From: Escherichia coli
GTDB taxonomy: Bacteria; Pseudomonadota; Gammaproteobacteria; Enterobacterales; Enterobacteriaceae
Assembly: GCF_044324785.1 (NCBI RefSeq)
Contig: NZ_CP172129.1
DNA length: 64,000 nucleotides
Strand: one strand, 5' to 3'
The notes under the pieces are model-generated. The model was given only the letters and a program-made list of their open reading frames with translations. It did not search any database and had not been told where the DNA came from. Numbering within the stretch: the first letter of the stretch is position 1; each line of letters opens with the position of its first letter. Shown one piece after another: positions 1 through 29,426 of the stretch. Both the position numbers and the translations under genes were made by a program.

Positions 1-889
1 CGGCACTACGGCTGAGACGATTGCACTGTCCGGAGGCCGTTTTGCCACCCTTGCCGGAAAGGCCGATCCGCTAAACAAAATGCCGGAGATCAACGTTCGG
101 GGAAACGCAAAGGAATCAGTGCTGACACTTGATAAAGCTCCCGCCCTGTCGGAATGGAACGGCGGCTTCCACACCGGACAACTGCTTACCTCCATGCGCA
201 TTATCGCCGGGAAATCTCGCCAGGTTCGGCTCTATATTCCGGATGTTGATATTTCTCAGCCCCTCGGGCTGGTCGTGCTGCCCGATGGTGAAACCTGGTT
301 TGATCACCTTGGCGTATGCGCGGCAATTGACGCCGCCATAAATAATGGGCGCATCGTGCCCGTGGCTGTACTGGGCATTGACAACATTAATGAACATGAA
401 CGCACTGAGATACTCGGCGGGCGCAGCAAACTGATAAAGGATATCGCCGGACATCTGCTGCCGATGATTCGCGCTGAACAACCGCAGCGTCAGTGGGCAG
501 ACCGTTCGCGCACAGTGCTGGCCGGGCAGAGCCTCGGCGGGATCAGTGCGCTAATGGGGGCTCGTTACGCACCGGAAACGTTCGGTCTGGTGCTCAGCCA
601 CTCTCCTTCAATGTGGTGGACGCCAGAAAGAACCAGTCGACCAGGCTTGTTCAGCGAAACCGATACCTCATGGGTGAGTGAGCATCTGCTTTCTGCCCCA
701 CCGCAGGGCGTACGTATCAGCCTGTGCGTGGGATCGCTGGAAGGTTCGACAGTGCCTCACGTTCAGCAGCTTCACCAGCGGCTGATTACCGCTGGCGTCG
801 AAAGCCATTGCGCAATCTACACCGGTGGTCACGATTACGCATGGTGGCGCGGTGCACTGATTGACGGGATTGGTTTACTACAGGGTTGA
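1..889 (+). CDS. iroD: Salmochelin/enterobactin esterase IroD, C-terminal part (5' end cut by window edge; reading frame is open back to position 2)
   Basis: Translation has the esterase serine motif GQSLGG and a Fes/IroD-like C-terminus; sits directly upstream of iroE and iroN. Confidence 0.85.
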   Translation, partial: GTTAETIALSGGRFATLAGKADPLNKMPEINVRGNAKESVLTLDKAPALSEWNGGFHTGQLLTSMRIIAGKSRQVRLYIPDVDISQPLGLVVLPDGETWFDHLGVCAAIDAAINNGRIVPVAVLGIDNINEHERTEILGGRSKLIKDIAGHLLPMIRAEQPQRQWADRSRTVLAGQSLGGISALMGARYAPETFGLVLSHSPSMWWTPERTSRPGLFSETDTSWVSEHLLSAPPQGVRISLCVGSLEGSTVPHVQQLHQRLITAGVESHCAIYTGGHDYAWWRGALIDGIGLLQG

Positions 890-973
890 GTTGACCCACA
901 AACACTTTCAGGAAACGGTACAGACTTCCTGAATAAATCAAATAGTCACCTGCGGAAAAGGAATAATCATCAG

Positions 974-1930
974 ATGTATGCCCGCGAGTATCGCTCAACA
1001 CGCCCGCATAAAGCGATTTTCTTTCATCTTTCTTGCCTCACCCTTATCTGTAGTGCGCAAGTTTATGCGAAGCCGGATATGCGGCCACTGGGGCCGAATA
1101 TAGCCGATAAAGGCTCCGTGTTTTACCATTTCAGCGTCACCTCTTTCGACTCTGTCGATGGCACACGCCATTATCGGGTATGGACGGCCGTGCCGAATAC
1201 AACCGCACCGGCATCGGGTTACCCGATTTTATATATGCTTGACGGTAACGCAGTTATGGATCGCCTGGATGACGAACTGCTCAAACAATTGTCAGAAAAA
1301 ACACCGCCAGTGATCGTGGCTGTCGGGTATCAGACCAACCTCCCTTTCGATCTCAACAGCAGGGCTTACGACTATACGCCAGCAGCAGAAAGCAGAAAAA
1401 CAGATCTCCACTCAGGGCGTTTTAGCCGTAAGAGTGGTGGCAGCAACAACTTCCGCCAGTTACTGGAAACGCGTATTGCCCCAAAAGTGGAACAGGGACT
1501 GAATATCGATCGGCAACGCCGCGGCTTATGGGGGCACTCCTACGGCGGCCTCTTCGTGCTGGATTCCTGGCTGTCCTCCTCTTACTTCCGGTCGTACTAC
1601 AGCGCCAGCCCGTCGTTGGGCAGAGGTTATGATGCTTTGCTAAGCCGCGTTACGGCGGTTGAGCCTCTGCAATTCTGCGCCAAACACCTGGCGATAATGG
1701 AAGGCTCGGCGACACAGGGTGATAACCGGGAAACGCATGCTGTCGGGGTGCTGTCGAAAATTCATACCACCCTCACTATACTGAAAGATAAAGGCGTCAA
1801 TGCCGTATTTTGGGATTTCCCCAACCTAGGACACGGGCCGATGTTCAATGCCTCCTTTCGCCAGGCACTGTTAGATATCAGTGGTGAAAACGCAAATTAC
1901 ACAGCAGGTTGTCATGAGTTAAGCCACTAA
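974..1930 (+). CDS. iroE: Periplasmic salmochelin esterase IroE (318 aa)
   Basis: 318-aa product with N-terminal signal/anchor and hydrolase motif GHSYGG; position between iroD and iroN. Confidence 0.85.
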   Translation: MYAREYRSTRPHKAIFFHLSCLTLICSAQVYAKPDMRPLGPNIADKGSVFYHFSVTSFDSVDGTRHYRVWTAVPNTTAPASGYPILYMLDGNAVMDRLDDELLKQLSEKTPPVIVAVGYQTNLPFDLNSRAYDYTPAAESRKTDLHSGRFSRKSGGSNNFRQLLETRIAPKVEQGLNIDRQRRGLWGHSYGGLFVLDSWLSSSYFRSYYSASPSLGRGYDALLSRVTAVEPLQFCAKHLAIMEGSATQGDNRETHAVGVLSKIHTTLTILKDKGVNAVFWDFPNLGHGPMFNASFRQALLDISGENANYTAGCHELSH

Positions 1931-1933
1931 ACA

Positions 1934-1955
1934 CTGCCCGCTTTTACGCGGGCAG
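1934..1955. terminator. Hairpin between convergent iroE and iroN (ctgcccgc-ttttac-gcgggcag)
   Basis: 8-bp perfect stem with 6-nt loop read directly, lying between the two convergent stop codons. Confidence 0.5.
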
Positions 1956-1974
1956 TACGCCTGAAACACTACGA

Positions 1975-4152
1975 TCAGAATGATGCGGTAACTCCGGCAT
2001 AGTAAGCCCGGCCTGGCTCGTTATAGGTATTCGCCCCTTCAGAAGATCGGAAGATCTGTTTATTGAGGATATTACTGACGCCGACATTAAGACGCAGATT
2101 TTTATTAATATCGTAATTGAAGTTCGTCCCCACCAGTGAATAAGCGCCCAGCTCTTTACCTGACAGACCGCCAGTATCTTCACTGCGGGTTTCCGCATGA
2201 GTACGCGGTTTTTGTCTGCCATATAACGTCCAGTTGACGCTGGCAGAAAACGCCTGGGTGATGGTCCAGTTAAGCGAGTTATTGATAGTATATTTCGGGA
2301 TGACCGACAGAGGATTACCGGTGTCTTTTTGCTCCGAAGTGATCATCCATGTGGCATTGGTATTCCAGTTCAGACGATCTTTCACCAGTGGGAAAGACAT
2401 ACTGGCTTCGATACCGTCCACCAGAGCTTTCCCGCCATTCTGCCACTTGAGGATATATGCGCCTGAAGCGGTTTGCCCGATAACGTTATCCCCGGCCACG
2501 ATCTTATTCTGGTAATCATTGCGGAAGTAGGTCACACTTGCGTGGTAATCTTCCCAGGTGAACTCCAGCCCAATTTCTTTATTGACGCTGATTTCCGGAT
2601 CGAGATCTTTATTACCGATCAGGTAGCACCCGCCTGATGTAATATCTTTTGGACAGCCATTGCCTTTCGAGTAGAGCAGATAGCCTTCACTGGATTGATA
2701 CAGGTTTGGGGCTTTAAAGGTTCGGGCAACCCCTGCTTTGACTTTGAAATAATCGCCCAATTCCTGCGAAAGATTCAGACTGGGGCTGAAGTTCCCGCCG
2801 GAGTCGCTGAGATAATCAAAGCGCAGGCCGGGAATGATATTCGTGCCAGGAACCGGCTCAATGTTATCTTCAATATACAGCGCACTGATTTGAGAATGAT
2901 TTTTACTGCTGCGATCCGCAGCAGAGCCAGAAATACCGCTGATATCACTGTCATTCACCGTCAGGCTGGTAGAGGAAGGATCATCGAGCTTATCGCGGTT
3001 CCACTCTGCACCAACGGTCAGCGTTTGATCAACCATCACATTCAAAGGAATATTAAGCTCGCCGCTGGTTCGCCAGGAACTCAGGCGATTGGTCGTAAAC
3101 TTTTCACCCGCTAAAATACGCCCTTCACCACCGCCGGATAATCCTTCATTCATGCGGGTATTATTGGTTTTCTCGTAATAAACACCAAAGCGACTTTGTC
3201 CCCAGTCCCAGATACCATTATGCGTAATGCCATAATTCTGTCGGTACAGGCGGTTCGTCTCTTTGCCGGATTTTGCCAGGCTTTCGGTAACTGCACTGGA
3301 AGAACTGTTTTGCGTATCGCCCGCATAGATATTCCCCTGGCGGCTATATCCGGCTTCGAAATCGAGAATCTGCTGCGGATTTAATTTCCACGAGACAACG
3401 CCGTTAATATCTTTGTTACGTACCCCTTCATGCCCGGCTGCGTTTTTCGTACCGACCGGAGAATTAATATCCCAACTGTCAGCATCCGTTTTATTCAGGT
3501 TACCATACAAACGCGTGGTAAGAGCATTACCAGCCAGAGGCCCACTAAGGCTGAAATTGGCGCGACGCGTAGCGCCCTCATCGCTACTTTCCGGCTGATT
3601 GGTGTATAACGACAGCGAACCGTGCCAGTCGTTGGTGGGACGTTTGGTAATGATGTTCACCACCCCCCCGGCTGCCCCCGAACCGTAGCGCGCCGCCGCA
3701 GGGCCGCGGATCACTTCAATACGCTCAACCTGTTCCGGTGGCACCCAGTTGGTGTCACCGCGGGTATCACGCTCTCCACGCCAGCTATAACGCACGGAGT
3801 TACGTGACGTCACCGGTACACCATCAATTAAAATTAAGGTGTTTTCCGGCCCCATACCACGAATATCGATCTGGCGGTTGTTACCGCGTGTGCCCGAGGC
3901 GCTATTGCCGGTAAGATTGACGCCAGGCATTTTACGAATAATATCTGAAAGGTCGTTTACCGGAGGGGTCTTTTTAATATCCTCGCTGGTAATAACCGAC
4001 ACGCCCGGCTGCTGTTTTAATACCTGCTCAGCGGTGGCTTCCACCACCAGAGTCTCGTCATTATCATCGTCGGAGGATTTGGCTACTGATACCTGGCTAT
4101 TCAACCCAACCAGGAGCACAGTTAGCGACCAGAGGATTTTGTTAATTCTCAT
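1975..4152 (-). CDS. iroN: TonB-dependent outer-membrane salmochelin receptor IroN (725 aa)
   Basis: 725-aa product with signal peptide, TonB box-like ETLVVEA and C-terminal aromatic residue typical of TonB-dependent receptors. Confidence 0.9.
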   Translation of the reverse strand: MRINKILWSLTVLLVGLNSQVSVAKSSDDDNDETLVVEATAEQVLKQQPGVSVITSEDIKKTPPVNDLSDIIRKMPGVNLTGNSASGTRGNNRQIDIRGMGPENTLILIDGVPVTSRNSVRYSWRGERDTRGDTNWVPPEQVERIEVIRGPAAARYGSGAAGGVVNIITKRPTNDWHGSLSLYTNQPESSDEGATRRANFSLSGPLAGNALTTRLYGNLNKTDADSWDINSPVGTKNAAGHEGVRNKDINGVVSWKLNPQQILDFEAGYSRQGNIYAGDTQNSSSSAVTESLAKSGKETNRLYRQNYGITHNGIWDWGQSRFGVYYEKTNNTRMNEGLSGGGEGRILAGEKFTTNRLSSWRTSGELNIPLNVMVDQTLTVGAEWNRDKLDDPSSTSLTVNDSDISGISGSAADRSSKNHSQISALYIEDNIEPVPGTNIIPGLRFDYLSDSGGNFSPSLNLSQELGDYFKVKAGVARTFKAPNLYQSSEGYLLYSKGNGCPKDITSGGCYLIGNKDLDPEISVNKEIGLEFTWEDYHASVTYFRNDYQNKIVAGDNVIGQTASGAYILKWQNGGKALVDGIEASMSFPLVKDRLNWNTNATWMITSEQKDTGNPLSVIPKYTINNSLNWTITQAFSASVNWTLYGRQKPRTHAETRSEDTGGLSGKELGAYSLVGTNFNYDINKNLRLNVGVSNILNKQIFRSSEGANTYNEPGRAYYAGVTASF

Positions 4153-4248
4153 ACCTATTCCCTAATAAATGCCTAACTTAAAATGTTTGATCGTTAAGCT
4201 CACATCCTTGCCAGATATTTTTTACTGCCATTATTGTTTTTATATAAG

Positions 4249-4267
4249 AATGATAATTAATATCATT
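4249..4267. promoter_or_regulatory. Fur box-like sequence upstream of iroN (aatgataattaatatcatt)
   Basis: AT-rich near-palindrome resembling the Fur consensus GATAATGATAATCATTATC, about 100 bp upstream of the iroN start. Confidence 0.45.
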
Positions 4268-5006
4268 TAGCAAAAAAAAAAGCAATCCCTCACAAGATAA
4301 ATATATCGATTTTTCATAAATATCAAATTGATATATAACATATGTTTTTTATTTCATTGCACTTGTCGATCATCGGGAATTTTGTCACAATTTCTCACGG
4401 ATAGTGTTCACATTGTTTCTGACCTGCATTTCAGGCGCGGGCGCTGCTTATGTATATAAGGGCCTGTGGTCGACGAATCAGCATAATCAGATCTTCCTGC
4501 GAGCAATTTCTTTCAGCGTATCAGGCAGCACTATCGGATTATCTACGTGCGTTTTTGATTCACATTGTGTGTGAAACTTCATACATCATGATTCGCTTTC
4601 CCTACTCAGTTCTGATGATTGTTTTTTATTCTATTAACACGGAGTTAAGATTCTACCCTCGGTGTCCTCATTATTAATGAGGAATGCTACCTATCTAAAA
4701 ACTGACCGAAACTTTGGGGCATCCCTGGAGGTTTCCAAGGAGAAAAAGGTGACAGTGATAGTGCCACATTGTGAGGAAATTCCTGAGAAACTCCTGGTTC
4801 ACACACATAATTCAGGAGTTTGCCATAGATAGTAACCAATTGTTTTATATTTTAAGACCATTAAATACGCGGCTACGATAGCGCTTTATATAATCATAAA
4901 CTGTAGAGATAAAATATCTGCTTCTCTGATAACACTAATTGAGTGTCTTAAACTAAGTAATTTCATTTTTCCCCCTTTAAAAGCAATATATGTGCAATAG
5001 TTGAAG

Positions 5007-6041
5007 TTAAAGCTGTGCTGCCAGAGTTGATAATAATTGTTCTGTCTGTTGCCATGATATGCATTCATCAGTAACAGACTGACCATACTCTAGCGGAAAA
5101 CTATCGGATTGTTTTCCATCTTGTAAAAAGCTTTCCACCATAATGCCAGCTACATATCCTGGTATTTTTTTCCGATTATCTATAACTTGACGTGCAACGG
5201 AAATTTGCCGTTTAGCCACTTTACCGCTATTACCATGGCTACAATCAATTATCAGACGATGGTTAATACCCTCATCATGCATTAATTTCACTGCCTTAGT
5301 TATATCAGACAAACCATAGTTAGGTTCTCTACCTCCACGTAATATTAGATGTCCATGTGGATTGCCATCGGTTAATAGTGTAGATATACTATTTGTTAAA
5401 GATGTCATATATACAATATGTTGTTCACGGGCTGCAATAATAGCGTCAATAGCTAAGTTAATATTTCCATCAGTACTGTTTTTAAATCCAACTGGACAAT
5501 GTAAACCAGACGCAAGTTGACGATGCGTTTGTGATTCAGTGGTTCTGGCACCAATAGCACCCCAACATATTAAATCAGCAATATAGGGAGTAAGAAAAGG
5601 ATCGAGGAATTCTGTAGCGGTTGCGACACGCATCGTTGTGATTGAAGACAAACACTGGCGAGCATATCGTATCCCTTTCTCAACATCATAACTTCCATTT
5701 AGATCAGGATCGTGCATTATTCCCTTCCAGCCTTTACGGGTTCGAGGTTTCTCAAAATAAGTGCGCATTACAATGTACATTTTCGATAAGTACTTATTCT
5801 GTAATACGAACAATCGCTTCGCATAATCAACTGCGGCCTGAACGTCATGGATTGAGCATGGACCAACAATCACAAGTAAGCGAGGATCTTTTCCCAGCAA
5901 AATATTCGCTATAATATCTCGTTGCAGAGAGATCCATGTTACGGTTTCTTCCGATACTGCGATTTCTTTATGAATCTCGCCCACAGTGGGTAAACTGCCA
6001 AGCAACTTCCCGCGGTAGATTAATTTACTAGCTGACTGCAT
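5007..6041 (-). CDS. 3-deoxy-7-phosphoheptulonate (DAHP) synthase, AroF/G/H class (344 aa)
   Basis: Full-length similarity to class I DAHP synthases (KPRT, GARTTESQ, IMVESF-type motifs). Confidence 0.85.
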   Translation of the reverse strand: MQSASKLIYRGKLLGSLPTVGEIHKEIAVSEETVTWISLQRDIIANILLGKDPRLLVIVGPCSIHDVQAAVDYAKRLFVLQNKYLSKMYIVMRTYFEKPRTRKGWKGIMHDPDLNGSYDVEKGIRYARQCLSSITTMRVATATEFLDPFLTPYIADLICWGAIGARTTESQTHRQLASGLHCPVGFKNSTDGNINLAIDAIIAAREQHIVYMTSLTNSISTLLTDGNPHGHLILRGGREPNYGLSDITKAVKLMHDEGINHRLIIDCSHGNSGKVAKRQISVARQVIDNRKKIPGYVAGIMVESFLQDGKQSDSFPLEYGQSVTDECISWQQTEQLLSTLAAQL

Positions 6042-6252
6042 CTTGTCTCCTAAAAGCGCTATTTCAGACCATCAGTTGCACACAGTAGATGATAATGATA
6101 ATCATTTACTGTATAATTGGCAATATATGGGGATTCATAGTCATTTCTGAGATAATATACGTTAGGCCTTCTCTCCCGTACGGAAATCACTTGTTTTCCG
6201 TAAATTACCTGAATCTTAATCCCTGAGCTGCGGCTAGCTGTGGAACTCACAA

Positions 6253-6590
6253 AAGCTGACCGGGCCGTGGCACAGCCTCTCTGCTGGCAGAACAGCGTAC
6301 TGCAGAAGTCGTCGTACTGCCGCTGGTCCCGGCATCAGGTCTGCCCGCAGATGGCACTTCTGCCACTGATCTGCCGGTGGAGCTGAACGGCATGACATAT
6401 CAGGCCTGCCGTGGGGATTTTGTGGTGCGCCTCGACGGCAGCACCTGTCTGCAGTTATAGAATAAAGAAGGCGGGGAGGTACGCAGGGAGGGCGATCCGC
6501 TGGAAGTGGCGTAGTGGCTGTAGGCCTGTAATGATGCAGGAATAGAAGTTCGTGTACAGGTTAATGAAAGCATCACCCCGTAAAAACATG
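6253..6590 (+). pseudogene. Decayed copy of the 3' half of the ORF at 15720..16310, with in-frame stops and small deletions
   Basis: DNA near-identical to about 15950-16310 but interrupted by TAG codons (e.g. cagttatag, gtggcgtag). Confidence 0.6.
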
Positions 6591-7494: not shown

Positions 7495-8065
7495 ACGATT
7501 CAGATATCGTCACTAGGATATGCCGCGCCAGCGGCATGGAAGGCGGCACTCCGCTGTTTCATATGATACCGCCGAAGCCCGATGTAAGCCGCTACAGTCG
7601 TCCGAAAGTCACCAGCCTCCTCCCCCCTGCCGTCATCCGTGCATCAGCTATGCACTGAGTATGCCTGCCCTTCCCTAGAGAATCCTGCTAGGCTTGCCAC
7701 ACTGATATATCTTGACTTTATGTAAACGATATGACACTTTAACATGATAATGATTACCATTCTCTTTTAATATACAGAGAAACTAGGAAATAGATGAATG
7801 AGTTATGTTACTTTAATATTCTCTGACAATAACCTAAATCAGTTAGATTATTGTCATTTAATAAATAATGACATTCTTTCATCATAAATAAAAAGACTAT
7901 TGTTTATAATATTGTTCTCAGCATTATATGATTATTTATCCTGATAACTCTCCTATGCTGTATGTTTATATGATTTTCCTTGAAACATATAATGCAAATT
8001 TTCGATTTATTTTCCATCATTAATCCAGATAAACAACAAACTAATAGTATGCAAGGAGACATTAT

Positions 8066-9340
8066 TTGTTTCGCCAGGATGCTTTAGAAAACAGAAAAAT
8101 GAAGTGGCAGGGACGGGCAATATTACTTCCCGGAATACCACTGTGGTTAATCATGCTGGGAAGCATTGTGTTTATTACGGCATTTCTGATGTTCATTATT
8201 GTTGGTACCTATAGCCGCCGTGTTAATGTCAGTGGTGAGGTCACAACCTGGCCAAGAGCTGTCAATATATATTCAGGTGTACAGGGATTTGTTGTCAGGC
8301 AGTTTGTTCATGAAGGGCAGTTGATAAAAAAAGGGGATCCTGTTTATCTGATTGACATCAGTAAAAGTACACGCAATGGTATTGTCACTGATAATCATCG
8401 CCGGGATATAGAAAACCAGCTGGTTCGTGTGGACAACATTATTTCCCGTCTGGAAGAAAGTAAAAAAATAACGCTAGATACCCTGGAAAAACAACGTCTG
8501 CAATACACAGATGCGTTCCGTCGCTCATCAGACATTATACAGCGTGCAGAGGAAGGGATAAAAATAATGAAAAATAATATGGAGAATTACAGATACTATC
8601 AGTCAAAAGGACTGATTAATAAAGATCAATTAACTAACCAAGTTGCATTATATTATCAACAACAAAACAACCTTCTCAGTCTGAGCGGACAAAATGAACA
8701 AAATGCCCTGCAGATAACCACTCTGGAGAGTCAGATTCAGACTCAGGCAGCAGATTTTGATAATCGTATCTATCAGATGGAACTGCAACGACTCGAATTG
8801 CAGAAAGAACTGGTTAACACTGATGTGGAAGGCGAAATCATTATCCGGGCGTTGTCTGACGGGAAAGTTGACTCCCTGAGTGTCACTGTAGGGCAAATGG
8901 TCAATACCGGAGACAGCCTTCTGCAGGTTATTCCTGAGAACATTGAAAACTATTATCTTATTCTCTGGGTCCCGAATGATGCTGTTCCTTATATTTCGGC
9001 TGGTGACAAAGTGAATATTCGTTATGAAGCCTTCCCCTCAGAAAAATTTGGGCAGTTCTCTGCTACGGTTAAAACTATATCCAGGACTCCTGCGTCAACA
9101 CAGGAAATGTTGACCTATAAGGGAGCACCTCAAAATACGCCGGGTGCCTCTGTTCCCTGGTATAAAGTCATTGCGACGCCTGAAAAGCAGATAATCAGGT
9201 ATGACGAAAAATACCTCCCTCTGGAAAATGGAATGAAAGCCGAAAGTACACTATTTCTGGAAAAAAGGCGTATTTACCAGTGGATGCTTTCTCCTTTCTA
9301 TGACATGAAACACAGTGCAACAGGACCGATCAATGACTAA
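8066..9340 (+). CDS. cvaA: Colicin V secretion protein CvaA (HlyD-type membrane fusion protein; alternative internal start at 8099)
   Basis: Translation matches CvaA over its full length as recalled; N-terminal TM segment and coiled-coil region. Confidence 0.9.
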
Positions 9341-10109
9341 CAGGAATTTCAGACAAATTATAAATCTGCTTGATTTGCGCTGGCAACGTCGTGTTCCGGT
9401 TATTCATCAGACGGAGACCGCTGAATGTGGACTGGCCTGCCTAGCAATGATATGCGGTCATTTTGGTAAGAATATTGACCTGATATATCTTCGCCGGAAG
9501 TTTAATCTCTCTGCCCGTGGAGCAACCCTTGCAGGAATCAATGGAATAGCGGAGCAACTGGGGATGGCCACCCGGGCTCTTTCACTGGAGTTGGATGAAC
9601 TTCGAGTCCTCAAAACGCCGTGTATTCTCCACTGGGATTTCAGTCACTTCGTCGTTCTGGTCAGCGTAAAGCGTAACCGTTATGTACTGCATGATCCGGC
9701 CAGGGGCATAAGATATATCAGCCGGGAGGAAATGAGCCGATATTTTACAGGCGTTGCACTTGAGGTCTGGCCCGGAAGTGAATTCCAGTCGGAAACCCTG
9801 CAGACCCGCATAAGTCTTCGTTCACTGATTAACAGTATTTACGGTATTAAAAGAACGCTGGCGAAAATTTTCTGTCTGTCAGTTGTAATTGAAGCAATCA
9901 ATCTGCTAATGCCGGTGGGGACACAGCTGGTTATGGATCATGCTATTCCTGCGGGGGACAGAGGGCTACTGACGCTAATTTCTGCTGCTCTTATGTTTTT
10001 TATATTACTCAAAGCTGCAACGAGTACGCTGCGCGCATGGTCTTCACTGGTTATGAGCACGCTCATCAATGTACAGTGGCAGTCGGGGCTGTTCGATCAT
10101 CTTCTCAGA
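9333..10109 (+). pseudogene. cvaB: cvaB 5' fragment (C39 peptidase domain of the colicin V ABC exporter), interrupted after codons LLR by an IS
   Basis: MTNRNFRQ... with catalytic Cys in ETAECGLACLAMI; frame runs into the IS inverted repeat and stops. Confidence 0.85.
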
Positions 10110-11166
10110 GGCTTTGTTGAATAAATCGAACTTTTGCTGAGTTGAAGGATCAGATCACGTATCTTCCCGACAACGCAGACCGTTCCGTGGCAAAGCAAAA
10201 GTTCAAAATCACCAACTGGCCCACCTACAATAAAGCCCTCATCAACCGTGGCTCCATAACTTTCTGGCTGGATGATGAAGCTATTCAGGCCTGGTATGAG
10301 TCAGCAACACCTTCTTCACGAGGCAGACCTCAGCGCTATTCTGACCTTGCCATCACTACTGTGCTGGTCATTAAACGCGTATTCAGGCTGACCCTGCGGG
10401 CTGCGCAGGGCTTTATTGATTCCATTTTTTCTCTGATGAACGTTCCGCTACGCTGCCCGGATTACAGCTGTGTCAGCAGGCGGGCAAAGTCGGTTAATGT
10501 CAGTTTCAAAACGCCCACCCGGGGTGAAATCGCACACCTGGTAATTGATTCCACCGGGCTGAAGGTCTTCGGTGAAGGCGAGTGGAAAGTCAAAAAGCAT
10601 GGCCAGGAACGCCGCCGTATCTGGCGTAAGCTGCATCTCGCCGTTGACAGTAAAACACATGAAATCATCTGCGCTGACCTGTCGCTGAACAACGTTACGG
10701 ACTCAGAGGCCTTCCCCGGGTTAATCCGGCAAACCCACCGGAAAATCAGGTCAGCCGCCGCCGATGGCGCTTACGATACCCGGCTATGTCACGATGAACT
10801 GCGGCGTAAGAAAATCAGCGCGCTTATCCCTCCCCGAAAAGGTGCGGGTTACTGGCCCGGTGAATATGCAGACCGTAACCGTGCAGTGGCTAATCAGCGA
10901 ATGACCGGGAGTAATGCGCGGTGGAAATGGACAACAGATTACAACCGTCGCTCGATAGCGGAAACGGCGATGTACCGGGTAAAACAGCTGTTCGGGGGTT
11001 CACTGACGCTGCGTGACTACGATGGTCAGGTTGCGGAGGCTATGGCCCTGGTACGAGCGCTGAACAAAATGACGAAAGCAGGTATGCCTGAAAGCGTGCG
11101 TATTGCCTGAAAACACAACCCGCTACGGGGGAGACTTACCCGAAATCTGATTTATTCAACAAAGCC
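10110..11166 (+). mobile_element. IS903-group (IS5 family) insertion sequence, 1057 bp, with terminal inverted repeats and 9-bp target-site duplication CTTCTCAGA
   Basis: Ends ggctttgttgaataaatcgaa / ccgaaatctgatttattcaacaaagcc; identical 9-mer at 10101-10109 and 11167-11175. Confidence 0.85.
10142..11110 (+). CDS. IS903-group DDE transposase (322 aa)
   Basis: Motifs IDSTGLKVFGEGEWK, DGAYDT, RRSIAETAMYRVK typical of IS903/IS102 transposases. Confidence 0.8.
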   Translation: MKDQITYLPDNADRSVAKQKFKITNWPTYNKALINRGSITFWLDDEAIQAWYESATPSSRGRPQRYSDLAITTVLVIKRVFRLTLRAAQGFIDSIFSLMNVPLRCPDYSCVSRRAKSVNVSFKTPTRGEIAHLVIDSTGLKVFGEGEWKVKKHGQERRRIWRKLHLAVDSKTHEIICADLSLNNVTDSEAFPGLIRQTHRKIRSAAADGAYDTRLCHDELRRKKISALIPPRKGAGYWPGEYADRNRAVANQRMTGSNARWKWTTDYNRRSIAETAMYRVKQLFGGSLTLRDYDGQVAEAMALVRALNKMTKAGMPESVRIA

Positions 11167-12495
11167 CTTCTCAGACTACCGCTGGCGTTTTTTGAACGCC
11201 GAAAATTAGGTGATATCCAGTCACGTTTTGACTCCCTTGACACATTGAGGGCCACATTTACCACCAGTGTGATCGGGTTCATAATGGACAGCATTATGGT
11301 TGTCGGTGTTTGTGTGATGATGCTGTTATACGGAGGATATCTCACCTGGATAGTTCTCTGCTTTACCACAATTTACATTTTTATTCGTCTGGTGACATAC
11401 GGCAATTACCGACAGATATCAGAAGAATGTCTTGTCAGGGAGGCCCGTGCCGCCTCCTATTTTATGGAAACATTATATGGTATTGCCACGGTAAAAATCC
11501 AGGGGATGGTCGGAATTCGGGGGGCACACTGGCTTAATATGAAAATAGATGCGATAAATTCGGGTATTAAGCTAACCAGGATGGATTTGCTCTTCGGAGG
11601 AATAAATACCTTTGTTACCGCCTGTGATCAGATTGTAATTTTATGGCTGGGAGCAGGCCTTGTGATCGATAATCAGATGACAATAGGAATGTTTGTAGCG
11701 TTTAGTTCTTTTCGTGGGCAGTTTTCGGAAAGAGTTGCCTCTCTGACCAGTTTTCTTCTTCAGCTAAGAATAATGAGTCTGCACAATGAGCGCATTGCAG
11801 ATATTGCATTACATGAAAAGGAGGAAAAGAAACCTGAAATTGAAATCGTTGCTGATATGGGGCCAATATCCCTGGAAACCAATGGTTTAAGCTATCGTTA
11901 TGACAGTCAGTCAGCACCGATATTCAGTGCTCTGAGTTTATCTGTAGCTCCGGGGGAAAGTGTGGCTATAACTGGTGCTTCCGGTGCGGGAAAAACCACA
12001 TTAATGAAAGTACTATGTGGACTATTTGAACCTGATAGCGGGAGGGTACTGATAAATGGTATAGATATACGCCAAATTGGAATAAATAATTATCACCGGA
12101 TGATAGCCTGTGTTATGCAGGATGACCGGCTATTTTCAGGCTCAATTCGTGAAAATATCTGTGGTTTTGCAGAGGAAATGGATGAAGAGTGGATGGTAGA
12201 ATGTGCCAGAGCAAGTCATATTCATGATGTTATAATGAATATGCCAATGGGATATGAAACATTAATAGGTGAACTTGGGGAAGGTCTTTCTGGCGGTCAA
12301 AAACAGCGTATATTTATTGCACGAGCCTTATACCGGAAACCAGGAATATTATTTATGGATGAGGCAACCAGTGCTCTTGATTCAGAGAGTGAACATTTCG
12401 TGAATGTTGCCATAAAAAACATGAATATCACCAGGGTAATTATTGCACACAGAGAAACAACGTTGAGAACTGTTGATAGAGTTATTTCTATTTAA
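11167..12495 (+). pseudogene. cvaB: cvaB 3' fragment (transmembrane and ABC ATPase domains)
   Basis: Resumes in frame at the duplicated LLR codons; Walker A GASGAGKTT, ABC signature LSGGQKQR, Walker B ILFMDEATSALD. Confidence 0.85.
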
Positions 12496-12664
12496 ACCAT
12501 AGAGGAATTACAAGCGTATGAGGAATATTTCTTCCTGTTATAATTCCTCGTTATGCTCAGATATCTGTTGGAGGTGGAATGGAAGATAGACAATCCACCA
12601 AGAAGAAATATCATTCTGTGTGGATTGTCCAATAACTGTTCTTTCTTATATTAAATAATACTAT

Positions 12665-12976
12665 TTATAAACAAACATCACTAAGATTATTTGGACTCCA
12701 ATTACACAATCTTCCCGCAGCATAGTTCCATGCTTCTGAAGGTATCCCTTCGGGTTTTTGCTTAATTGTTCCCCCTAAACCGGATGGAGACATTGCAGGA
12801 TTAGGTTTGTGAGTGGATGCATAGTCATATATTGCACCTCCAGCCACACCCCCAGCAGCTGCTCCAATTCCTCCTGCAACAAATTGCCCGGATAGTGTTC
12901 CTATAGCCATCGCAATATCACGCCCTGAAGCACCACCAGAAACAGAATCTAATTCATTTAGAGTCAGAGTTCTCAT
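12665..12976 (-). CDS. cvaC: Colicin V (microcin V) precursor, 103 aa with double-glycine leader
   Basis: Leader MRTLTLNELDSVSGG followed by Gly/Ala-rich mature peptide; matches CvaC as recalled. Confidence 0.95.
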   Translation of the reverse strand: MRTLTLNELDSVSGGASGRDIAMAIGTLSGQFVAGGIGAAAGGVAGGAIYDYASTHKPNPAMSPSGLGGTIKQKPEGIPSEAWNYAAGRLCNWSPNNLSDVCL

Positions 12977-13190
12977 ATGATCTCCTTTTTATCTTATCGG
13001 ATATTGAATAATAATTATCACCAACAAAGTAACATATTGCAGACATTAATGCAGAGAAGCAAAATGTATGCATGGATAAAAAGTCCTTTCCTCTAAAAAC
13101 ACAATCATATATAGCTAATGCAATATATATTGCGGTGGCATTTATTATAAATGCAAATAACAACTCTAATTTTGTTCTTTTTCTATCCAT
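12954..13190 (-). CDS. cvi: Colicin V immunity protein Cvi (78 aa)
   Basis: 78-aa hydrophobic protein immediately upstream of and overlapping cvaC. Confidence 0.9.
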   Translation of the reverse strand: MDRKRTKLELLFAFIINATAIYIALAIYDCVFRGKDFLSMHTFCFSALMSAICYFVGDNYYSISDKIKRRSYENSDSK

Positions 13191-13235
13191 TACTTTTTAT
13201 CCCATTACTTTCTATCCCATTACCACACAAACACT

Positions 13236-13254
13236 AACGATAATGATTATCGTT
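13236..13254. promoter_or_regulatory. Fur box upstream of cvi-cvaC (aacgataatgattatcgtt)
   Basis: 19-bp palindrome close to the Fur consensus, about 45 bp upstream of the cvi start. Confidence 0.6.
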
Positions 13255-13308
13255 AACATAGTCAAGAGTGAAGGGTAGGAGGCCCTCAACCCCCTATAAG
13301 GGGTCCGC

Positions 13309-14128
13309 TTGGAAAACGGATTTCCCCACGTCAAGAGAATTGATTTGAACGAGTGGCTTCGCTACAAACAGCTCCCGTTTGTGTGTGAAAAACCCCTCTC
13401 AACAGATCTCAACTCTGCACGATATCTACAGGAGATTGCTCCAAAAGGCAGTATCGTGTCTTTTAACTACCGATATAACCCCGTCATCGACATGATAATG
13501 CGTCTGAGAAATGAGAAGAAATTAGGTGAACTGCATTTCTTCTCAGCAGAATTTAATAAAAATTCTGCACTGACCCGCCATCACCTGACCTGGCGAGACT
13601 CCGCACAACAGAGCAAAAGCAGCGGTGCTCTGGGCGATCTATCCTGTCATCTGCTTGATTTATTTTGTTTTATAGGGGAAAGCCCGGTAGTGGTTCATGG
13701 GATCAAAACGGTAAAGGGGACACGTGGGTACAAAATCAGATGGTCAGGTTGAAGTGGATGATAACGGCTATGTAATGGGCAGTTCAGAAAAGGGAGCTTA
13801 TTTCAGAGTTCATGCCAGTAAATCGGAAACAGATCATAATTTGGGACTGCATATACAGCTTGTATTTGAAAATGGTGAAATCAGATATTCAACCCACCAT
13901 GAAAATCGCCTGCTCCTGATTCTATTTAATGATACGAATACGGAAACAATTGGCTTCGACGCTCTGAAACGCTTGCCTGATCCACCACGGGAGCTTCCAT
14001 TCTGGTCTGATTCGTTTATTCATCTTCATGACGACTGGTGTGCTCTTATTAAATATGGTCACTCGTCTCCTAAGCTGGCGGACCTGTCATCCGGCCTTCA
14101 TATACAGGAAATAATTGAGGCATTCTGA
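13309..14128 (+). pseudogene. Gfo/Idh/MocA-type oxidoreductase remnant (N-terminally truncated and split over two frames near 13724-13752)
   Basis: EKP motif (FVCEKPLS) near the start of the first ORF; C-terminal domain continues in a different frame. Confidence 0.5.
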
Positions 14129-14399
14129 TATGGATACCATTCTTTTAACCGGGCTGTTTGCTGCATTTTTCACAACGTTTGCGTTCGCTCCCCAGAGCAT
14201 AAAAACTATCAGGACACGCAATACCGAAGGTATCTCCGTTGTTATGTATATCATGTTCCTGACAGGTGTAATCTCATGGATAGCGTATGGCATTATGCGA
14301 TCTGATTTTGCCGTACTGATCGCCAATATTGTCACACTGTTTCTGGCTGCACCAGTGCTTGTAATAACACTTATCAACCGCAGGAAAAAACACGTATGA
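14115..14399 (+). CDS. SemiSWEET/PQ-loop small membrane transporter (start probably at 14130)
   Basis: About 90 aa with three hydrophobic helices and a PQ motif (FAFAPQSIKTIR). Confidence 0.55.
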   Translation: MRHSDMDTILLTGLFAAFFTTFAFAPQSIKTIRTRNTEGISVVMYIMFLTGVISWIAYGIMRSDFAVLIANIVTLFLAAPVLVITLINRRKKHV

Positions 14400-14662
14400 A
14401 TATTGCAATCATCGGCGCGGGTCCTGCCGGCATCATTTCTGCCCGTAATGCGATTAAAGCAGGTCACTCCGTGGTTCTGTTTGAGAAGAATACCCGAATT
14501 GGGGGGATCTGGAACCCCTGGAGTGGTGGCGCTTACCGTAATGCCTGTATGCAGAACTCTCGTTATACATTTCATTATACTGGCTTTCCCCCTGGCGATA
14601 TCGATGAACGAAGTTGGATGCAAATGTCAGATCGTGTGCGCCTGTTAGGGCGCGGCTGGTAA
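14396..14662 (+). pseudogene. N-terminal stub (88 aa) of a flavin-dependent monooxygenase
   Basis: Dinucleotide-binding motif IAIIGAGPAGI, then a premature stop; full-length homologues are several-fold longer. Confidence 0.5.
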
Positions 14663-14689
14663 GAGAGCCTTATAGGCGCATTTGAAAAA

Positions 14690-14708
14690 CCTCCGGCTAT
14701 GCCGGAGG
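14690..14708. terminator. Hairpin cctccggc-tat-gccggagg flanked by T/A runs, between convergent genes
   Basis: 8-bp stem read directly; followed by atatttattt. Confidence 0.5.
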
Positions 14709-16715: not shown

Positions 16716-17051
16716 ATGAACAGAAAATATTATTTTAATAATATGTGGTGGGGATGGGTGACGGGGGGATATATGCTGTATATGTCATGGGATTATGATT
16801 TTAAATACAGATTACTGTTCTGGTGTATTTCTCTCTGCGGAATGGTTTTGTATCCGGTTGCAAAATGGTATATTGAAGATACAGCTCTGAAATTTACCCG
16901 GCCTGATTTCTGGAACAGCGGTTTTTTTGCTGATACACCTGGAAAAATGGGATTGCTTGCTGTTTATACGGGTACTGTTTTCATATTATCTCTTCCGTTA
17001 AGTCTGATATATATTCTTTCTGTTATTATAAAAAGGCTGTCTGTAAGATAG
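16716..17051 (+). CDS. iia: Colicin Ia immunity protein (111 aa)
   Basis: 111-aa membrane protein MNRKYYFNNMWWGW..., convergent with and adjacent to the colicin Ia gene. Confidence 0.9.
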   Translation: MNRKYYFNNMWWGWVTGGYMLYMSWDYDFKYRLLFWCISLCGMVLYPVAKWYIEDTALKFTRPDFWNSGFFADTPGKMGLLAVYTGTVFILSLPLSLIYILSVIIKRLSVR

Positions 17052-17072: not shown

Positions 17073-18953
17073 TTAAATACCCCAGAACTTATTCGCTTTT
17101 TCCACAAGCGATTCATCAATCAGCGCACCGGTGACAGCCATCAGTAAACCATACCCGATAATGCCTAAAGCGCTTCCGGTAAGAATACTGAAGACCAGTG
17201 CAACAAGAGCCGTTGCGGCATTGCCTGCTATAATGGCTTCTGTTTTAACAAAAAGAGGACGCCAGTTCTCTGTCCGGACACCCTTACCAAACTCAGTGAT
17301 CCAGTCAGCAAGACTTGTAAATTTTCCTGCATATCCCAGTCCCCGACTGAATCTGTTCAGATTAGACGATATATCAGACAGCTTCACTGACTCAAGGGCT
17401 GCGGCAATCGCTGCACGATCTTTTGCATTAATTTTTTTGTTAATGTCAGCCCGGTACTTTTCATACGTTTTTAATGCCTCTTCAACATTACGTATTTTCT
17501 TCCCTTTAGCCTGCCCGGCCATCTCTCTGGCTAACTGCTCAGCTTTTGCACCATATTTTTCTGAAACTGATTTCAGGAACTCTGTTGTGAAATTAATTGC
17601 GTCTTTCGTTGCCTTCAGTTCATCCTGTTTTCTTTTCTCTTCCGCTATCTTCTGATTGATGCCGGCAAGCTGGTTACGGATATTCTCTTTTTCCTTCAAC
17701 AGGGCATTAAGAGCGTCATTTGCATGCTTTTGCTCATTTGTTCTGGCACTGAGGTTATTTCTCGCAGAATTTACCGCAGATTCAGCAGAGGTGATTTTAT
17801 TTCTGGCATCAAGCAATCTTTGCCGTAACTTATCCCATTCAGCAACTTCAGCATTATAAATTTTCTTGTCACCTTCCACATCCTCTGTCACCACCGGATT
17901 CCGGTCATTCAGAATATTGCGTTTATAGTCCAGACCGGAATGGGTCAGAAGATAATTCAGGTTTGCACGGTTATCGATGACTGCGCTGGTTGTGATTTTT
18001 ATCGTACCGGCAAATCTCGGATCACCGCTCACAACAATAGAATGATTTGTTGATGAACGCCCCGGGAATTTTTCAGGGGAAACTATCGTTTTGCCGTCAA
18101 GCGTGTTTTTCTGTTGCGTCAGCTGTTGCTCAGCTCTGGTTAATGCATTACGGGCCGTGTTAAGCGATTCCGTCACTGAACTGAGTTTATTCCGGGCCTC
18201 TGAAATGGCCCTGTCATTCCGTGTCTGCTGCCCGAGCAGACGGGCCTGTTGTGCATCAAGAACGGCAAGGGCTGCCCCGCCATTTTTTTCCAGCTCTGAC
18301 AACCGCGTGTCCAGAATACCTTTTCTGCGCTCGTATTCAGCAAGCATATCAGCGGCCTTCTTGTCTGCGTTCTGCGCATCCTTCTGCCGTTTTTCAGCCT
18401 GTTCGATTAACGACCTGGCCTCCCGGGGAGATATACGAAGAGAATCAGCATCAGCAAAGAGCATCCGGCTCTCTGTATGCAGCCGGAGGGCATCATATCC
18501 GGCGATTTCAGTACGGAATCCGTATTCTCTCAGCTCTGCCTGCAGGAGTCTGAACTCCTGTCGTGTAATATCAGCGGCATCTGCGTTTCCGGCACGGAGT
18601 GTTTTCAGTGTGTTTTCATCTTTTTCCCTTGCAGCAATCGCCGCAGAGAGGCGTTTTGCGGCTTCAGTACGCTTATTCTCATTCTCTTTCTGCTGCGCGC
18701 TGAGCGTCATTTTGTACGCTGTGATTTCCTTGTCCCTTTTTTCGATATCACTTCGGGTTGGGGAATCATCGACCCACTCGTTTCCGCCCCAGATGGTTTT
18801 GTTCCCGAAGGAACTCCATGCAGGCGGGGTACCATGAAAGACATCGACACGTGGAGGGTTTACATAAATATCAACGGCCATAATTTCATGGCCATCTGAA
18901 TCATACCCCAGCGATTCTGCACCGGGATTTGTAATACGTACAGGGTCAGACAT
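17073..18953 (-). CDS. cia: Colicin Ia (626 aa, pore-forming)
   Basis: 626-aa product MSDPVRITNPGAESLGYDSDGHEIMAVDIY... with C-terminal hydrophobic channel-forming hairpin. Confidence 0.95.
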   Translation of the reverse strand: MSDPVRITNPGAESLGYDSDGHEIMAVDIYVNPPRVDVFHGTPPAWSSFGNKTIWGGNEWVDDSPTRSDIEKRDKEITAYKMTLSAQQKENENKRTEAAKRLSAAIAAREKDENTLKTLRAGNADAADITRQEFRLLQAELREYGFRTEIAGYDALRLHTESRMLFADADSLRISPREARSLIEQAEKRQKDAQNADKKAADMLAEYERRKGILDTRLSELEKNGGAALAVLDAQQARLLGQQTRNDRAISEARNKLSSVTESLNTARNALTRAEQQLTQQKNTLDGKTIVSPEKFPGRSSTNHSIVVSGDPRFAGTIKITTSAVIDNRANLNYLLTHSGLDYKRNILNDRNPVVTEDVEGDKKIYNAEVAEWDKLRQRLLDARNKITSAESAVNSARNNLSARTNEQKHANDALNALLKEKENIRNQLAGINQKIAEEKRKQDELKATKDAINFTTEFLKSVSEKYGAKAEQLAREMAGQAKGKKIRNVEEALKTYEKYRADINKKINAKDRAAIAAALESVKLSDISSNLNRFSRGLGYAGKFTSLADWITEFGKGVRTENWRPLFVKTEAIIAGNAATALVALVFSILTGSALGIIGYGLLMAVTGALIDESLVEKANKFWGI

Positions 18954-19138: not shown

Positions 19139-19987
19139 TCAGATTTTCAGCCGTGCCTGTTCCTGCAGCAGTTCCAGATGATATGCAGCAATAGCGTTTA
19201 CCACCCCTGCCGTCATCCGTGCGTCGGCGATCGCTGAGTGTGCCTGCCCTTCCCAGGTCAGTCCGGCCTGGCTGGCAGCACAGGCCAGTGAAATCGTGCC
19301 ATAGCGGTTGGTGGCCCCATAATATCCTGCAGCCAGCTCCATCGCACAATATACCGTCAGTTCTTCCAGCCAGTCAGCCGGATCGCTATGTGCGGCAGCA
19401 GTCTGTTTCAGAATGCGGATGTCGAACCGGGCATTAAAGATAATTACTGGTCGGTCCCCGATTGCATGACGCAGTTGCCGCGCCACATCTGTCCATGATG
19501 GTGCGCCGCAGAGAGCCTGCTCGCTGATACCATGCACAGCGGCGGCCTGCGCCCCGATGGCGACCGTGGGCTTCAGCCTGGTTTCAAATACCACCTGACC
19601 GGACGCATCGGTCAGGCCGATTTCCAGAGCTTCCGCGGTATTGTCCAGTCCTGTCGTTTCAGTATCCAGAAAGAGCGGTGCCAGACTCAGCCAGTCATAT
19701 GCCTGCCGTGCCATCCGGCCACTGGTGCTGTTAAGTCTGGATAAAACGGAAAGTCGCTGGCCAGCCAGAAGTTGTTTACTCGTCAGTGGGCGTTTCTCAC
19801 GCATCGGAACACAGTCTGCAATTCGGTATACAGCGAACCTGCCACCATAAGTGTTTTTATACCACTTAACCGGCTCAGCACCGGGGGCTGGCTTCATTCT
19901 GAATTCATCGCGCAGCCGTTCTTTCGAGAAACACCTGTCTTCGGCAATCGCCTGCGCACGTCTGGTGGCCAGCTCATCATTATTCAT
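19139..19987 (-). CDS. DnaQ-like DEDDh 3'-5' exonuclease domain protein (282 aa)
   Basis: Exo I motif LFLDTETTGLD, then an HxAxxD-type motif (HSAIADA) near the C-terminus. Confidence 0.7.
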   Translation of the reverse strand: MNNDELATRRAQAIAEDRCFSKERLRDEFRMKPAPGAEPVKWYKNTYGGRFAVYRIADCVPMREKRPLTSKQLLAGQRLSVLSRLNSTSGRMARQAYDWLSLAPLFLDTETTGLDNTAEALEIGLTDASGQVVFETRLKPTVAIGAQAAAVHGISEQALCGAPSWTDVARQLRHAIGDRPVIIFNARFDIRILKQTAAAHSDPADWLEELTVYCAMELAAGYYGATNRYGTISLACAASQAGLTWEGQAHSAIADARMTAGVVNAIAAYHLELLQEQARLKI

Positions 19988-21190: not shown

Positions 21191-21228
21191 GGGGAGCCCG
21201 CAGAATTCGGAAAAAATCGTACGCTAAG
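21191..21228. repeat. 38-bp terminal inverted repeat of a Tn21-subgroup (Tn3-family) transposon (tnpA end)
   Basis: ggggagcccgcagaattcggaaaaaatcgtacgctaag immediately downstream of the tnpA stop. Confidence 0.75.
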
Positions 21229-24190: not shown

Positions 24191-24193
24191 GTG

Positions 24194-24754
24194 TCAGTCG
24201 TCCGTGCGGAGGTACTGGTAGAGGGTTTCCCGGCTGATGTTGAACTCGCGGGCAAGCTGCGCCTTGGGCTCGCCGGCCGTCGCTCGCTGCCGCAGGGTAG
24301 CAGCCTGCTCATCGGACAGGGCTTTCTTGCGGCCCCGGTACGCGCCACGCTGCTTGGCCAAGGCGATGCCCTCACGCTGCCGCTCGCGGATCAGGGCGCG
24401 CTCGAACTCAGCGAAGGCCCCCATCACCGACAGCATCAGGTTGGCCATCGGCGAGTCCTCGCCAGTGAACACCAGGCCCTCCTTCAGGAACTCGATGCGC
24501 ACGCCGCGCTGAGTCAGCTTCTGTACCAAGCGACGCAGGTCATCGAGGTTGCGGGCCAGCCGATCCATGCTGTGCACCACCACTGTATCGCCTTCGCGGA
24601 CGAAGCTCAGCAGCGCTTCGAGCTGGGGGCGCTGGGTGTCCTTGCCCGATGCCTTGTCGGTGAACACCTTGCTCACCTGGGTTTGTTCCAGCTGGCGTTC
24701 CGGGTTCTGGTCAAAGCTGCTGACCCGGACGTAGCCGATGCGGTGCCCCTGCAC
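24194..24754 (-). CDS. tnpR: Serine-recombinase resolvase TnpR (186 aa)
   Basis: Catalytic serine motif GYVRVSSFDQN and C-terminal helix-turn-helix. Confidence 0.9.
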   Translation of the reverse strand: MQGHRIGYVRVSSFDQNPERQLEQTQVSKVFTDKASGKDTQRPQLEALLSFVREGDTVVVHSMDRLARNLDDLRRLVQKLTQRGVRIEFLKEGLVFTGEDSPMANLMLSVMGAFAEFERALIRERQREGIALAKQRGAYRGRKKALSDEQAATLRQRATAGEPKAQLAREFNISRETLYQYLRTDD

Positions 24755-24900
24755 GATGTCTCCTTGGTTGAAGGCGGCTTAAGTGCACTTTCTGTTCCGT
24801 TGTGCCTCAAAGCCCATTTCTGTCAGGCTGAAATCTATAACCTTCGCGGGCATGTGTCAAAAAATGGGAAAGCAGACTCTATTCTGACGAAGCGGCGCGG
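24755..24900. promoter_or_regulatory. Probable res site / tnpR promoter region
   Basis: Inferred from its position upstream of tnpR in a Tn21-like layout; subsites not mapped. Confidence 0.4.
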
Positions 24901-24929
24901 CCCTGCCTGACATCAAGTTAGGGTATGCC

Positions 24930-25280
24930 TCAACCTGACGGCGGCGAATCACAAGCGTCCGGTTTGACGCTGGTTTCGGTCGCAGTGCTGGCCCGCGCCT
25001 GGAAGCGCTGATAGCACTCCAGCCCGCAGAAATGCTCCACGTACTCGGCCCCTTCCGGCGTGAAGGCGGCATCGAGCGGGATTTCCTTGCAGCACACGCA
25101 GCAACTGGTGCTCGGTTCATTGGCGTTCATGGTGGTGTTCCTCCATTGGTTGACGAAGCCGACGAAGGCCGCCGCCGGCATCGGCCTGGCGAACAGGAAA
25201 CCCTGCACCGTGTCGCAACCCGCCTGCCGCAACCACGCAAGGCAGTCGGGTGTTTCCACACCCTCGGCTACCACCTCCAT
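24930..25280 (-). pseudogene. urf2/tnpM-like remnant (3' part of an EAL-domain gene cut by integron insertion)
   Basis: Translation ...[27 protein letters not shown]... is an EAL-domain C-terminus; abuts the integron IRi. Confidence 0.6.
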
Positions 25281-25305
25281 TGTCGTTTTCAGAAGACGGC
25301 TGCAC
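25281..25305. repeat. Class 1 integron inverted repeat IRi (tgtcgttttcagaagacggctgcac)
   Basis: Canonical 25-bp IRi sequence read directly. Confidence 0.8.
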
Positions 25306-25482
25306 TGAACGTCAGAAGCCGACTGCACTATAGCAGCGGAGGGGTTGGATCCATCAGGCAACGACGGGCTGCTGCCGGCCATCAGCGGACGCAGGGAGGA
25401 CTTTCCGCAACCGGCCGTTCGATGCGGCACCGATGGCCTTCGCGCAGGGGTAGTGAATCCGCCAGGATTGACTTGCGCTGCC

Positions 25483-26496: not shown

Positions 26497-26572
26497 GGCT
26501 TGTTATGACTGTTTTTTTGTACAGTCTATGCCTCGGGCATCCAAGCAGCAAGCGCGTTACGCCGTGGGTCGA

Positions 26573-26637
26573 TGTTTGATGTTATGGAGCAGCAACGATG
26601 TTACGCAGCAGGGCAGTCGCCCTAAAACAAAGTTAAC
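26573..26637. other. attI1 recombination site (approximate)
   Basis: ...cctaaaacaaag|ttaacc junction immediately before the first cassette. Confidence 0.55.
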
Positions 26638-26651
26638 CCGGAACCAAAATT

Positions 26652-27125: not shown

Positions 27126-27206
27126 CAAAGCTATGCAATTGACGGTAAAAAGCTTCGTTCGCTTCGCTTGCTACGCTTCTTACCGCAATTGATAACGGCG
27201 TTAGAT
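27126..27206. other. attC (59-be) of the dfrA cassette, ending in core GTTAGAT
   Basis: Imperfect inverted repeats and terminal gttagat read directly. Confidence 0.55.
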
Positions 27207-27224
27207 GCACTAAGCACATAATTG

Positions 27225-28383
<1,159 letters not shown>

Positions 28384-28524: not shown

Positions 28525-28553
28525 AACCCTGGTAAATGCTTCAATAATATTGA

Positions 28554-29426
<873 letters not shown>

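Follow-up and report, generated by a model that had tools for sequence, protein, structure and literature searches.

An IS903B insertion splits the colicin V exporter gene cvaB on a pSF-088-1-type plasmid of Escherichia coli

Introduction

Colicin V (microcin V) is secreted by CvaB, CvaA, and TolC acting together, with cleavage of the leader during export. This secretion is severely impaired when CvaB carries point mutations in its peptidase domain or in its nucleotide-binding motif (PMC3335142, PMC11465617, PMC10233263). The genes of the system are laid out in two convergent operons (PMC11465617, PMC2626276). Among the plasmids with a ColV locus, the pSF-088-1 lineage has been reported as the commonest ColV-like type in Escherichia coli strains of sequence type 95 (ST95) (PMC8788324). 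The current study deals with a stretch of 64,000 nucleotides from E. coli contig NZ_CP172129.1 (assembly GCF_044324785.1), hereafter called the window, in which the exporter gene cvaB of such a plasmid is split by the insertion sequence (IS) IS903B. The original prediction, made from the letters of the stretch without database searches, had named an IS903-group element in cvaB, a perfect 9-bp repeat at its borders, intact cvaC and cvi genes, and, as a consequence, an inactive exporter in a host that keeps its immunity.

Comparable losses have been described for siderophore-microcin islands, e.g., a truncated mchF gene in E. coli 536 and an IS within the island of strain CA58, and the loss of an exporter gene or the insertion of an IS has been read there as lost microcin secretion or production (PMC7472721). 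Those are chromosomal class IIb microcin islands, whereas the ColV locus of the window is located on a plasmid.

Results

Comparison with intact ColV plasmids

The window represents the pSF-088-1 lineage of the incompatibility group F (IncF) ColV virulence plasmids. Its first 25 kb correspond to positions 55880-79813 of pSF-088-1 (NZ_CP012636.1) except for 1066 bp, which comprise the IS and one copy of the repeat, and one single-nucleotide polymorphism (SNP); there is no mismatch over the 10,109 bp to the left of the IS and one over the 13,825 bp to its right. The canonical four genes of the two convergent operons (cvaA-cvaB and cvi-cvaC) are all present. Gene order, convergent layout, and the products of cvaA, cvaC, and cvi are the same as in intact pSF-088-1 and other ColV F plasmids, and the three translations are identical to those of pSF-088-1, which agrees with the prediction that cvaC and cvi are intact. 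What distinguishes the window from intact ColV loci is the interruption of cvaB by IS903B after codon 259. The comparison with plasmids carrying an uninterrupted cvaB, which had been suggested as a check, agrees with the predicted insertion.

IS903B and its target site

The sequence CTTCTCAGA is found exactly twice in the window, both strands considered (scripted check), and the two copies enclose 1057 bp (Table 1); at the empty site of pSF-088-1 it stands only once. The enclosed element ends in 18-bp perfect inverted repeats, GGCTTTGTTGAATAAATC, its first 18 nucleotides being the reverse complement of its last 18. Element length, 18-bp inverted repeats, and a 9-bp duplication are the hallmarks of IS903. 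The element holds a single full-length open reading frame (ORF) for an IS5-family DDE transposase, which matches the NCBIfam model NF033579 with 357.6 bits (cutoff of 140) over profile positions 1-289 of 289. All 1057 bp are 100% identical to many E. coli RefSeq copies labeled "IS5-like element IS903B family transposase," and the identity to the IS903B of CP098992.1 amounts to 99.8% (2 mismatches in 1057 bp). The element is therefore IS903B, a sequence with full-length copies in 1,536 of 5,426 complete E. coli genomes and at up to 47 places per genome.

The two ends of this element are the only places in the window with the IS903 inverted-repeat sequence. Both a composite transposon and a second copy of IS903 were therefore rejected, and the event is regarded as a simple insertion. 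All coordinates given in the original prediction proved correct by inspection of the sequence and by script, and the predicted clean transposition with a 9-bp target duplication, coding for Leu-Leu-Arg on both sides, is confirmed. Because only one SNP separates the 24 kb of flanking DNA from pSF-088-1 and circulating IS903B copies show no difference from the IS, the insertion is, to judge from these comparisons, recent.

The cvaB gene before and after the interruption

The left copy of CTTCTCAGA represents codons 257-259 (Leu-Leu-Arg) in the ORF with its ATG start at position 9333, and the right copy shares the reading frame of the ORF whose end is at 12495. When 9333-10109 is joined to 11176-12495, the resulting 2097 nucleotides encode a CvaB protein of 698 amino acids (aa) without an internal stop. 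There is no difference between the restored gene and the cvaB gene of pSF-088-1, which AMRFinderPlus scores at 100% to its cvaB reference, and the restored product is the 698-aa protein described previously (PMC11465617). This protein can be aligned from end to end with PCAT1 structures, 4RY2 among them, and its Pfam map comprises Peptidase_C39 (PF03412, residues 21-149), ABC_membrane (PF00664, 179-444), and ABC_tran (PF00005, 511-658), ABC denoting the ATP-binding cassette. The residues Cys32, His105, and Asp121, which were defined as the triad of the CvaB C39 peptidase (PMC3335142), are present, as are the Walker A motif at residue 526 and the LSGGQ motif at residue 630. Hydrophobicity peaks place the first three transmembrane helices at about residues 179-200 (TM1), 211-229 (TM2), and 291-309 (TM3), and according to this prediction the break after residue 259 is situated within the transmembrane domain, in the cytoplasmic loop between TM2 and TM3.

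In its interrupted state the gene is predicted to yield a 5' product of 263 aa that keeps the C39 peptidase with catalytic Cys32, His105, and Asp121 as well as TM1-TM2 (Table 1). The frame of the 3' fragment differs from that of the transposase. No Shine-Dalgarno-like sequence was found upstream of the first in-frame start candidates TTG 11245, GTG 11269, and ATG 11284 of the 3' fragment, the last of which is its first ATG and lies inside the predicted TM3. With the gene split after residue 259, the six-helix ABC domain and the ATPase are not encoded on one polypeptide in the window. The gene is a disrupted cvaB that encodes no complete peptidase-containing ABC transporter.

Support for both junctions in short-read data

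Both borders of the IS were recovered in the short-read assembly of SRR31073010. The contigs were found in Logan by exact-protein look-up with the ATG-start 263-aa N-terminal fragment and with a partial product starting at 11137. One contig equals window positions 7524-10138 without mismatch and stops 29 nucleotides inside the IS (left junction), and a second one equals positions 11137-14703, likewise with 0 mismatches (right junction). The exact IS-terminated 263-aa product is called on the first of these contigs. Both contigs reach about 30 nucleotides into the IS and are unbranched at the junction, as would be expected if the interrupted allele dominates in this sample. Exact-protein look-ups with the GTG-start N-terminal fragment, with the TTG-start and Met-substituted C-terminal fragment, and with the partial product from 11140 gave no match. 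A match to the 403-aa product from ATG 11284 (record L006, SRR12122722) was set aside, as that contig merely begins at the equivalent of window position 11282 and is uninformative on the junction.

Occurrence of the allele and related disruptions

Two annotated collections, PLSDB (72,556 plasmids) and the 5,426 complete RefSeq E. coli genomes, were searched with 200-bp junction probes, and no record in either spans one of the two junctions. An empty site was seen in 371 of the PLSDB plasmids and in 416 of the complete E. coli genomes. No paper was retrieved by a literature search that combined cvaB and IS903. The state of the ColV locus was surveyed in 60 evenly spaced records out of 1,079 matching E. 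coli records; about 21 plasmid loci were intact, and about 18 showed an interruption or a truncation or consisted only of a cvaC/cvi or cvi remnant. Public genomes commonly contain such ColV remnants as well as cvaB or cvaC alleles that are disrupted by an IS.

Several of the disrupted loci resemble that of the window. On plasmid p20KM0223_1 (NZ_CP151046.1), cvaB likewise contains one IS, both halves are kept (labeled as pseudogenes by the annotation pipeline PGAP), and cvaA, cvaC, and cvi are intact, but the element is ISEc48 of the IS3 family, which has the opposite orientation and is located at about nucleotide 1626 of cvaB, in the ATPase region. On p10_578_1 (NZ_CP087565.1), an independent IS1 insertion in cvaB destroys the exporter and cvaC is retained; its 9-bp duplication, AGACTACCG (reference positions 10107-10115), lies 6 bp downstream of the window's IS903B target, with an overlap of 3 bp between the two. 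This plasmid differs in that cvaA and the 5' portion of cvaB were later lost in association with IS26, in that cvi is a pseudogene, and in that colicin B/M genes are present downstream. In NZ_CP116243.1, a ColBM-type plasmid, cvaB is truncated by IS421 at about nucleotide 570. The related ColV plasmid CP098992.1 shares the IS903B, the locus, and the plasmid type with the window and shows a 9-bp duplication, CCTCCAGCC; there, however, the IS resides in the toxin precursor gene cvaC, which predicts an intact exporter and no toxin.

Table 1. Features of the colicin V region and its surroundings. Positions are those of the window unless a comparison record (L number) is named.
Feature	Position	Strand	Remarks
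Left 9-bp target-site duplication CTTCTCAGA	10101-10109	.	Single copy in pSF-088-1
IS903B (IS5 family, IS903 group), 1057 bp	10110-11166	+	Left inverted repeat 10110-10127, right inverted repeat 11149-11166; co-oriented with cvaB
IS903B transposase ORF, 307 aa from GTG	10187-11110	+	Longest ORF begins with TTG 10142
Right 9-bp target-site duplication CTTCTCAGA	11167-11175	.	Sequence check
cvaB 5' fragment	9333-10124	+	Codons 1-259 (9333-10109), four IS codons (Gly-Phe-Val-Glu), and TAA; predicted 263 aa
cvaB 3' fragment	11167-12495	+	Codons 257-698: TM3-TM6 and ABC ATPase; without own start codon or ribosome-binding site
cvaA, HlyD-family membrane-fusion adaptor of the colicin V exporter, 424 aa, intact	8066-9340	+	Identical to WP_000489608.1 (pSF-088-1); matches TIGR01843
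cvaC, colicin V (microcin V) precursor, 103 aa, intact	12665-12976	-	Identical to reference; PF17508 (MccV) on the same gene in comparison record L008
cvi, colicin V immunity protein, 78 aa, intact	12954-13190	-	Identical to WP_001323890.1 of pSF-088-1
Colicin Ia immunity gene, intact	16716-17051	+	Translation identical to pSF-088-1 gene annotated colicin 1A immunity protein
Colicin Ia structural gene, 626 aa, intact	17073-18953	-	Translation identical to pSF-088-1 colicin Ia
TnAs1/Tn21-type tnpA	21224-24190	-	
Resolvase	24194-24754	-	
intI1	25483-26496	-	
dfrA5	26652-27125		
IS26, three copies	27225-28044, 29961-30780, 33977-34796		
blaTEM-1	28566-29426		
ISEc48-split cvaB	L011 (NZ_CP151046.1) 1568-5015		
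IS1 in cvaB	L009 (NZ_CP087565.1) 3145-4010		Corresponds to L007 10027-10115
IS421-truncated cvaB	L012 (NZ_CP116243.1) 4268-5821		
IS903B in cvaC	L001 (CP098992.1) 5281-6337		Related ColV plasmid, UK poultry farm

Plasmid context

The colicin Ia gene and its immunity gene are located about 4 kb from the ColV locus. Downstream of cvi, two overlapping ORFs of 147 and 134 aa (13309-14128) resemble a frameshifted or truncated Gfo/Idh/MocA oxidoreductase; this remnant is in the same state in pSF-088-1 and is annotated as a pseudogene in NZ_CP151046.1, and its decay predates the IS903B event. Over the first 25 kb, the sole base substitution relative to pSF-088-1, a G at window position 19477 instead of the reference T, changes Lys171 to Gln in a 282-aa ORF annotated as 3'-5' exonuclease (19139-19987, minus strand). 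ColV-typical virulence cargo is found on both sides of the locus (80-4152 and 35966-44000) and includes the salmochelin genes iroD (in part), iroE, and iroN and the aerobactin genes iucC, iucD, and iutA, which were assigned from the annotation of matching records, as well as iucA and iucB, which were assigned by ORF size only.

The window also contains a multiresistance region (21224-34796; Table 1). Its segment 30781-34796, with a truncated aph(3'')-Ib, sul2, and the IncQ gene repC, is inverted relative to pSF-088-1, and aph(6)-Id and the mer module do not follow. These differences from pSF-088-1 point to IS26-mediated rearrangement. Over positions 39001-64000, several further complete ColV plasmids match the window with 100% identity.

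Discussion

Overall, we assign a probability of 0.87 to the account that IS903B recently transposed into cvaB of a pSF-088-1-type plasmid and that the bearer is an immune non-secretor of colicin V with a remaining capacity for colicin Ia. The insertion of a single copy at CTTCTCAGA and the duplication of 9 bp can be read directly from the DNA. Translation of cvaB would then end four codons into the IS, which predicts a 263-aa product limited to the C39 domain and TM1-2, and the other 439 codons, specifying helices 3-6 and the ATPase, would be left without a start signal. A CvaA-CvaB-TolC channel that lacks the complete membrane domain and the ATPase should be unable to move colicin V. Since cvaB is cut between its peptidase and ATPase domains, both of which are needed, plasmid-encoded export of colicin V has almost certainly been lost. 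The cvi-cvaC operon is untouched, and the precursor should still be made in a cell that is immune. Since colicin V does not become bactericidal until it has been exported (PMC6795089), the trapped precursor should not harm its host. A polar effect on downstream genes was also considered and rejected; no gene follows cvaB in its operon, and transcription of cvi-cvaC is convergent to it, so that none is expected on immunity or precursor synthesis.

Some points weigh against this account, beginning with the loss of secretion itself, which we infer from the structure of the gene. Protease activity has been found in vitro for the isolated N-terminal domain of CvaB (PMC3335142), and leader cleavage by the 263-aa fragment may therefore persist, which would not amount to export. 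Moreover, a trans-acting homologous exporter such as MchEF, encoded on the chromosome and hence outside the window, might substitute for the missing one, so that colicin V would still be secreted by way of MchE/MchF of a microcin H47/M island or a similar peptidase-ABC system in place of CvaAB. The mchEF loci share about 92% DNA identity with cvaAB and occupy 370 chromosomal places among the 5,426 complete E. coli genomes, with CFT073, Nissle 1917, and an ST131 strain among the bearers. The MchEF and CvaAB exporters are reportedly related in function or interchangeable. In the closely related microcin H47 system, the peptidase-ABC exporter is MchF (PMC8277102, PMC7472721), and pSF-088-1-type plasmids are common in ST95, a lineage of phylogroup B2 (PMC8788324). 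A chromosomal mchEF copy is, however, carried by only about 7% of the complete genomes, and no such exporter gene lies inside the 64-kb window, in which a search for a second CvaB- or CvaA-like gene found none. We therefore regard continued secretion by this route as unlikely. The predicted inactive exporter and immune, non-secreting host are supported as the best reading of the sequence, given the split between TM2 and TM3, the lack of a ribosome-binding site for a restart, and the lack of a second exporter in the window; the chromosomal MchEF genes are the caveat that has to be added to it.

That the IS could be an assembly artefact, i.e., a misplaced repeat in front of an actually intact cvaB, deserves mention, as IS903B is highly repetitive in E. 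coli and such repeats can be placed wrongly in an assembly. However, a perfect 9-bp duplication of the length expected for IS903, present as a single copy at the empty site, is a signature of transposition that misassembly does not make, and a de Bruijn assembly of short reads contained each of the two junctions, recovered separately and without mismatch. SRR31073010 may come from the same isolate as the window, and in this case it would represent an independent data type and not an independent strain. With the target duplication and both junctions present in a separate data type, misassembly is very unlikely, the artefact is already largely refuted, and the predicted IS can be taken as real. 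The idea that export persists through expression of both cvaB fragments and their assembly into a functional split transporter appears equally far-fetched. The 3' fragment is in frame with several internal start codons, and read-through transcription is possible from an IS that is co-oriented with cvaB. But none of the restart codons has a Shine-Dalgarno sequence, and a product from ATG 11284 would miss part of TM3 and the preceding intracellular loop. A promoter scan of the 3'-fragment region returned weak promoter-like matches at 11257-11285; these agree with the consensus at 9 of 12 positions, similar counts were obtained in shuffled sequence, and the scan was not used as evidence. We know of no precedent for a split CvaB that works.

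The related disruptions raise the broader question of whether the ColV locus is under recurrent selection for the loss of export or toxin with immunity kept ("immune cheaters") and/or whether codons 257-262 of cvaB are a preferred landing site for unrelated IS elements. The basis of this idea is formed by the IS903B target at 10101-10109, the IS1 target at 10107-10115, the IS903B in cvaC, ISEc48 and IS421 elsewhere in cvaB, and the many plasmids with cvaC/cvi or cvi only. These are a handful of cases, and the 200-bp probe biases detection toward the insertion region. We regard the idea as doubtful, and the proximity of the IS903B and IS1 targets could be a coincidence or a local hot spot.

The finding offers no new mechanism, family, or system and is a case of routine gene decay. 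All components and the type of event were already known, and it is only this insertion allele that has no entry in either of the two annotated collections that were searched. Its practical relevance concerns the use of cvaC and cvaB as PCR and in silico markers for ColV virulence plasmids. The plasmid of the window would score positive for cvaA, cvaC, cvi, and both ends of cvaB, yet probably confers no colicin V secretion, so that gene presence would overstate the phenotype.

Functional assays are affected as well. The intact colicin Ia and immunity genes would confound a simple colicin V halo assay, as a zone would still be given. Colicin Ia also enters the target cell through the Cir receptor. 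Since Cir, by which colicin V is recognized (PMC6795089), is common to both toxins, a cir indicator would be unable to separate them. The strain should stay bacteriocinogenic through colicin Ia, and an unqualified colicin V halo assay would be misleading. In ecological terms, the window would add one more case of a bacteriocin producer turned into an immune non-secretor on a globally spread plasmid lineage of extraintestinal pathogenic and avian pathogenic strains (PMC8788324).

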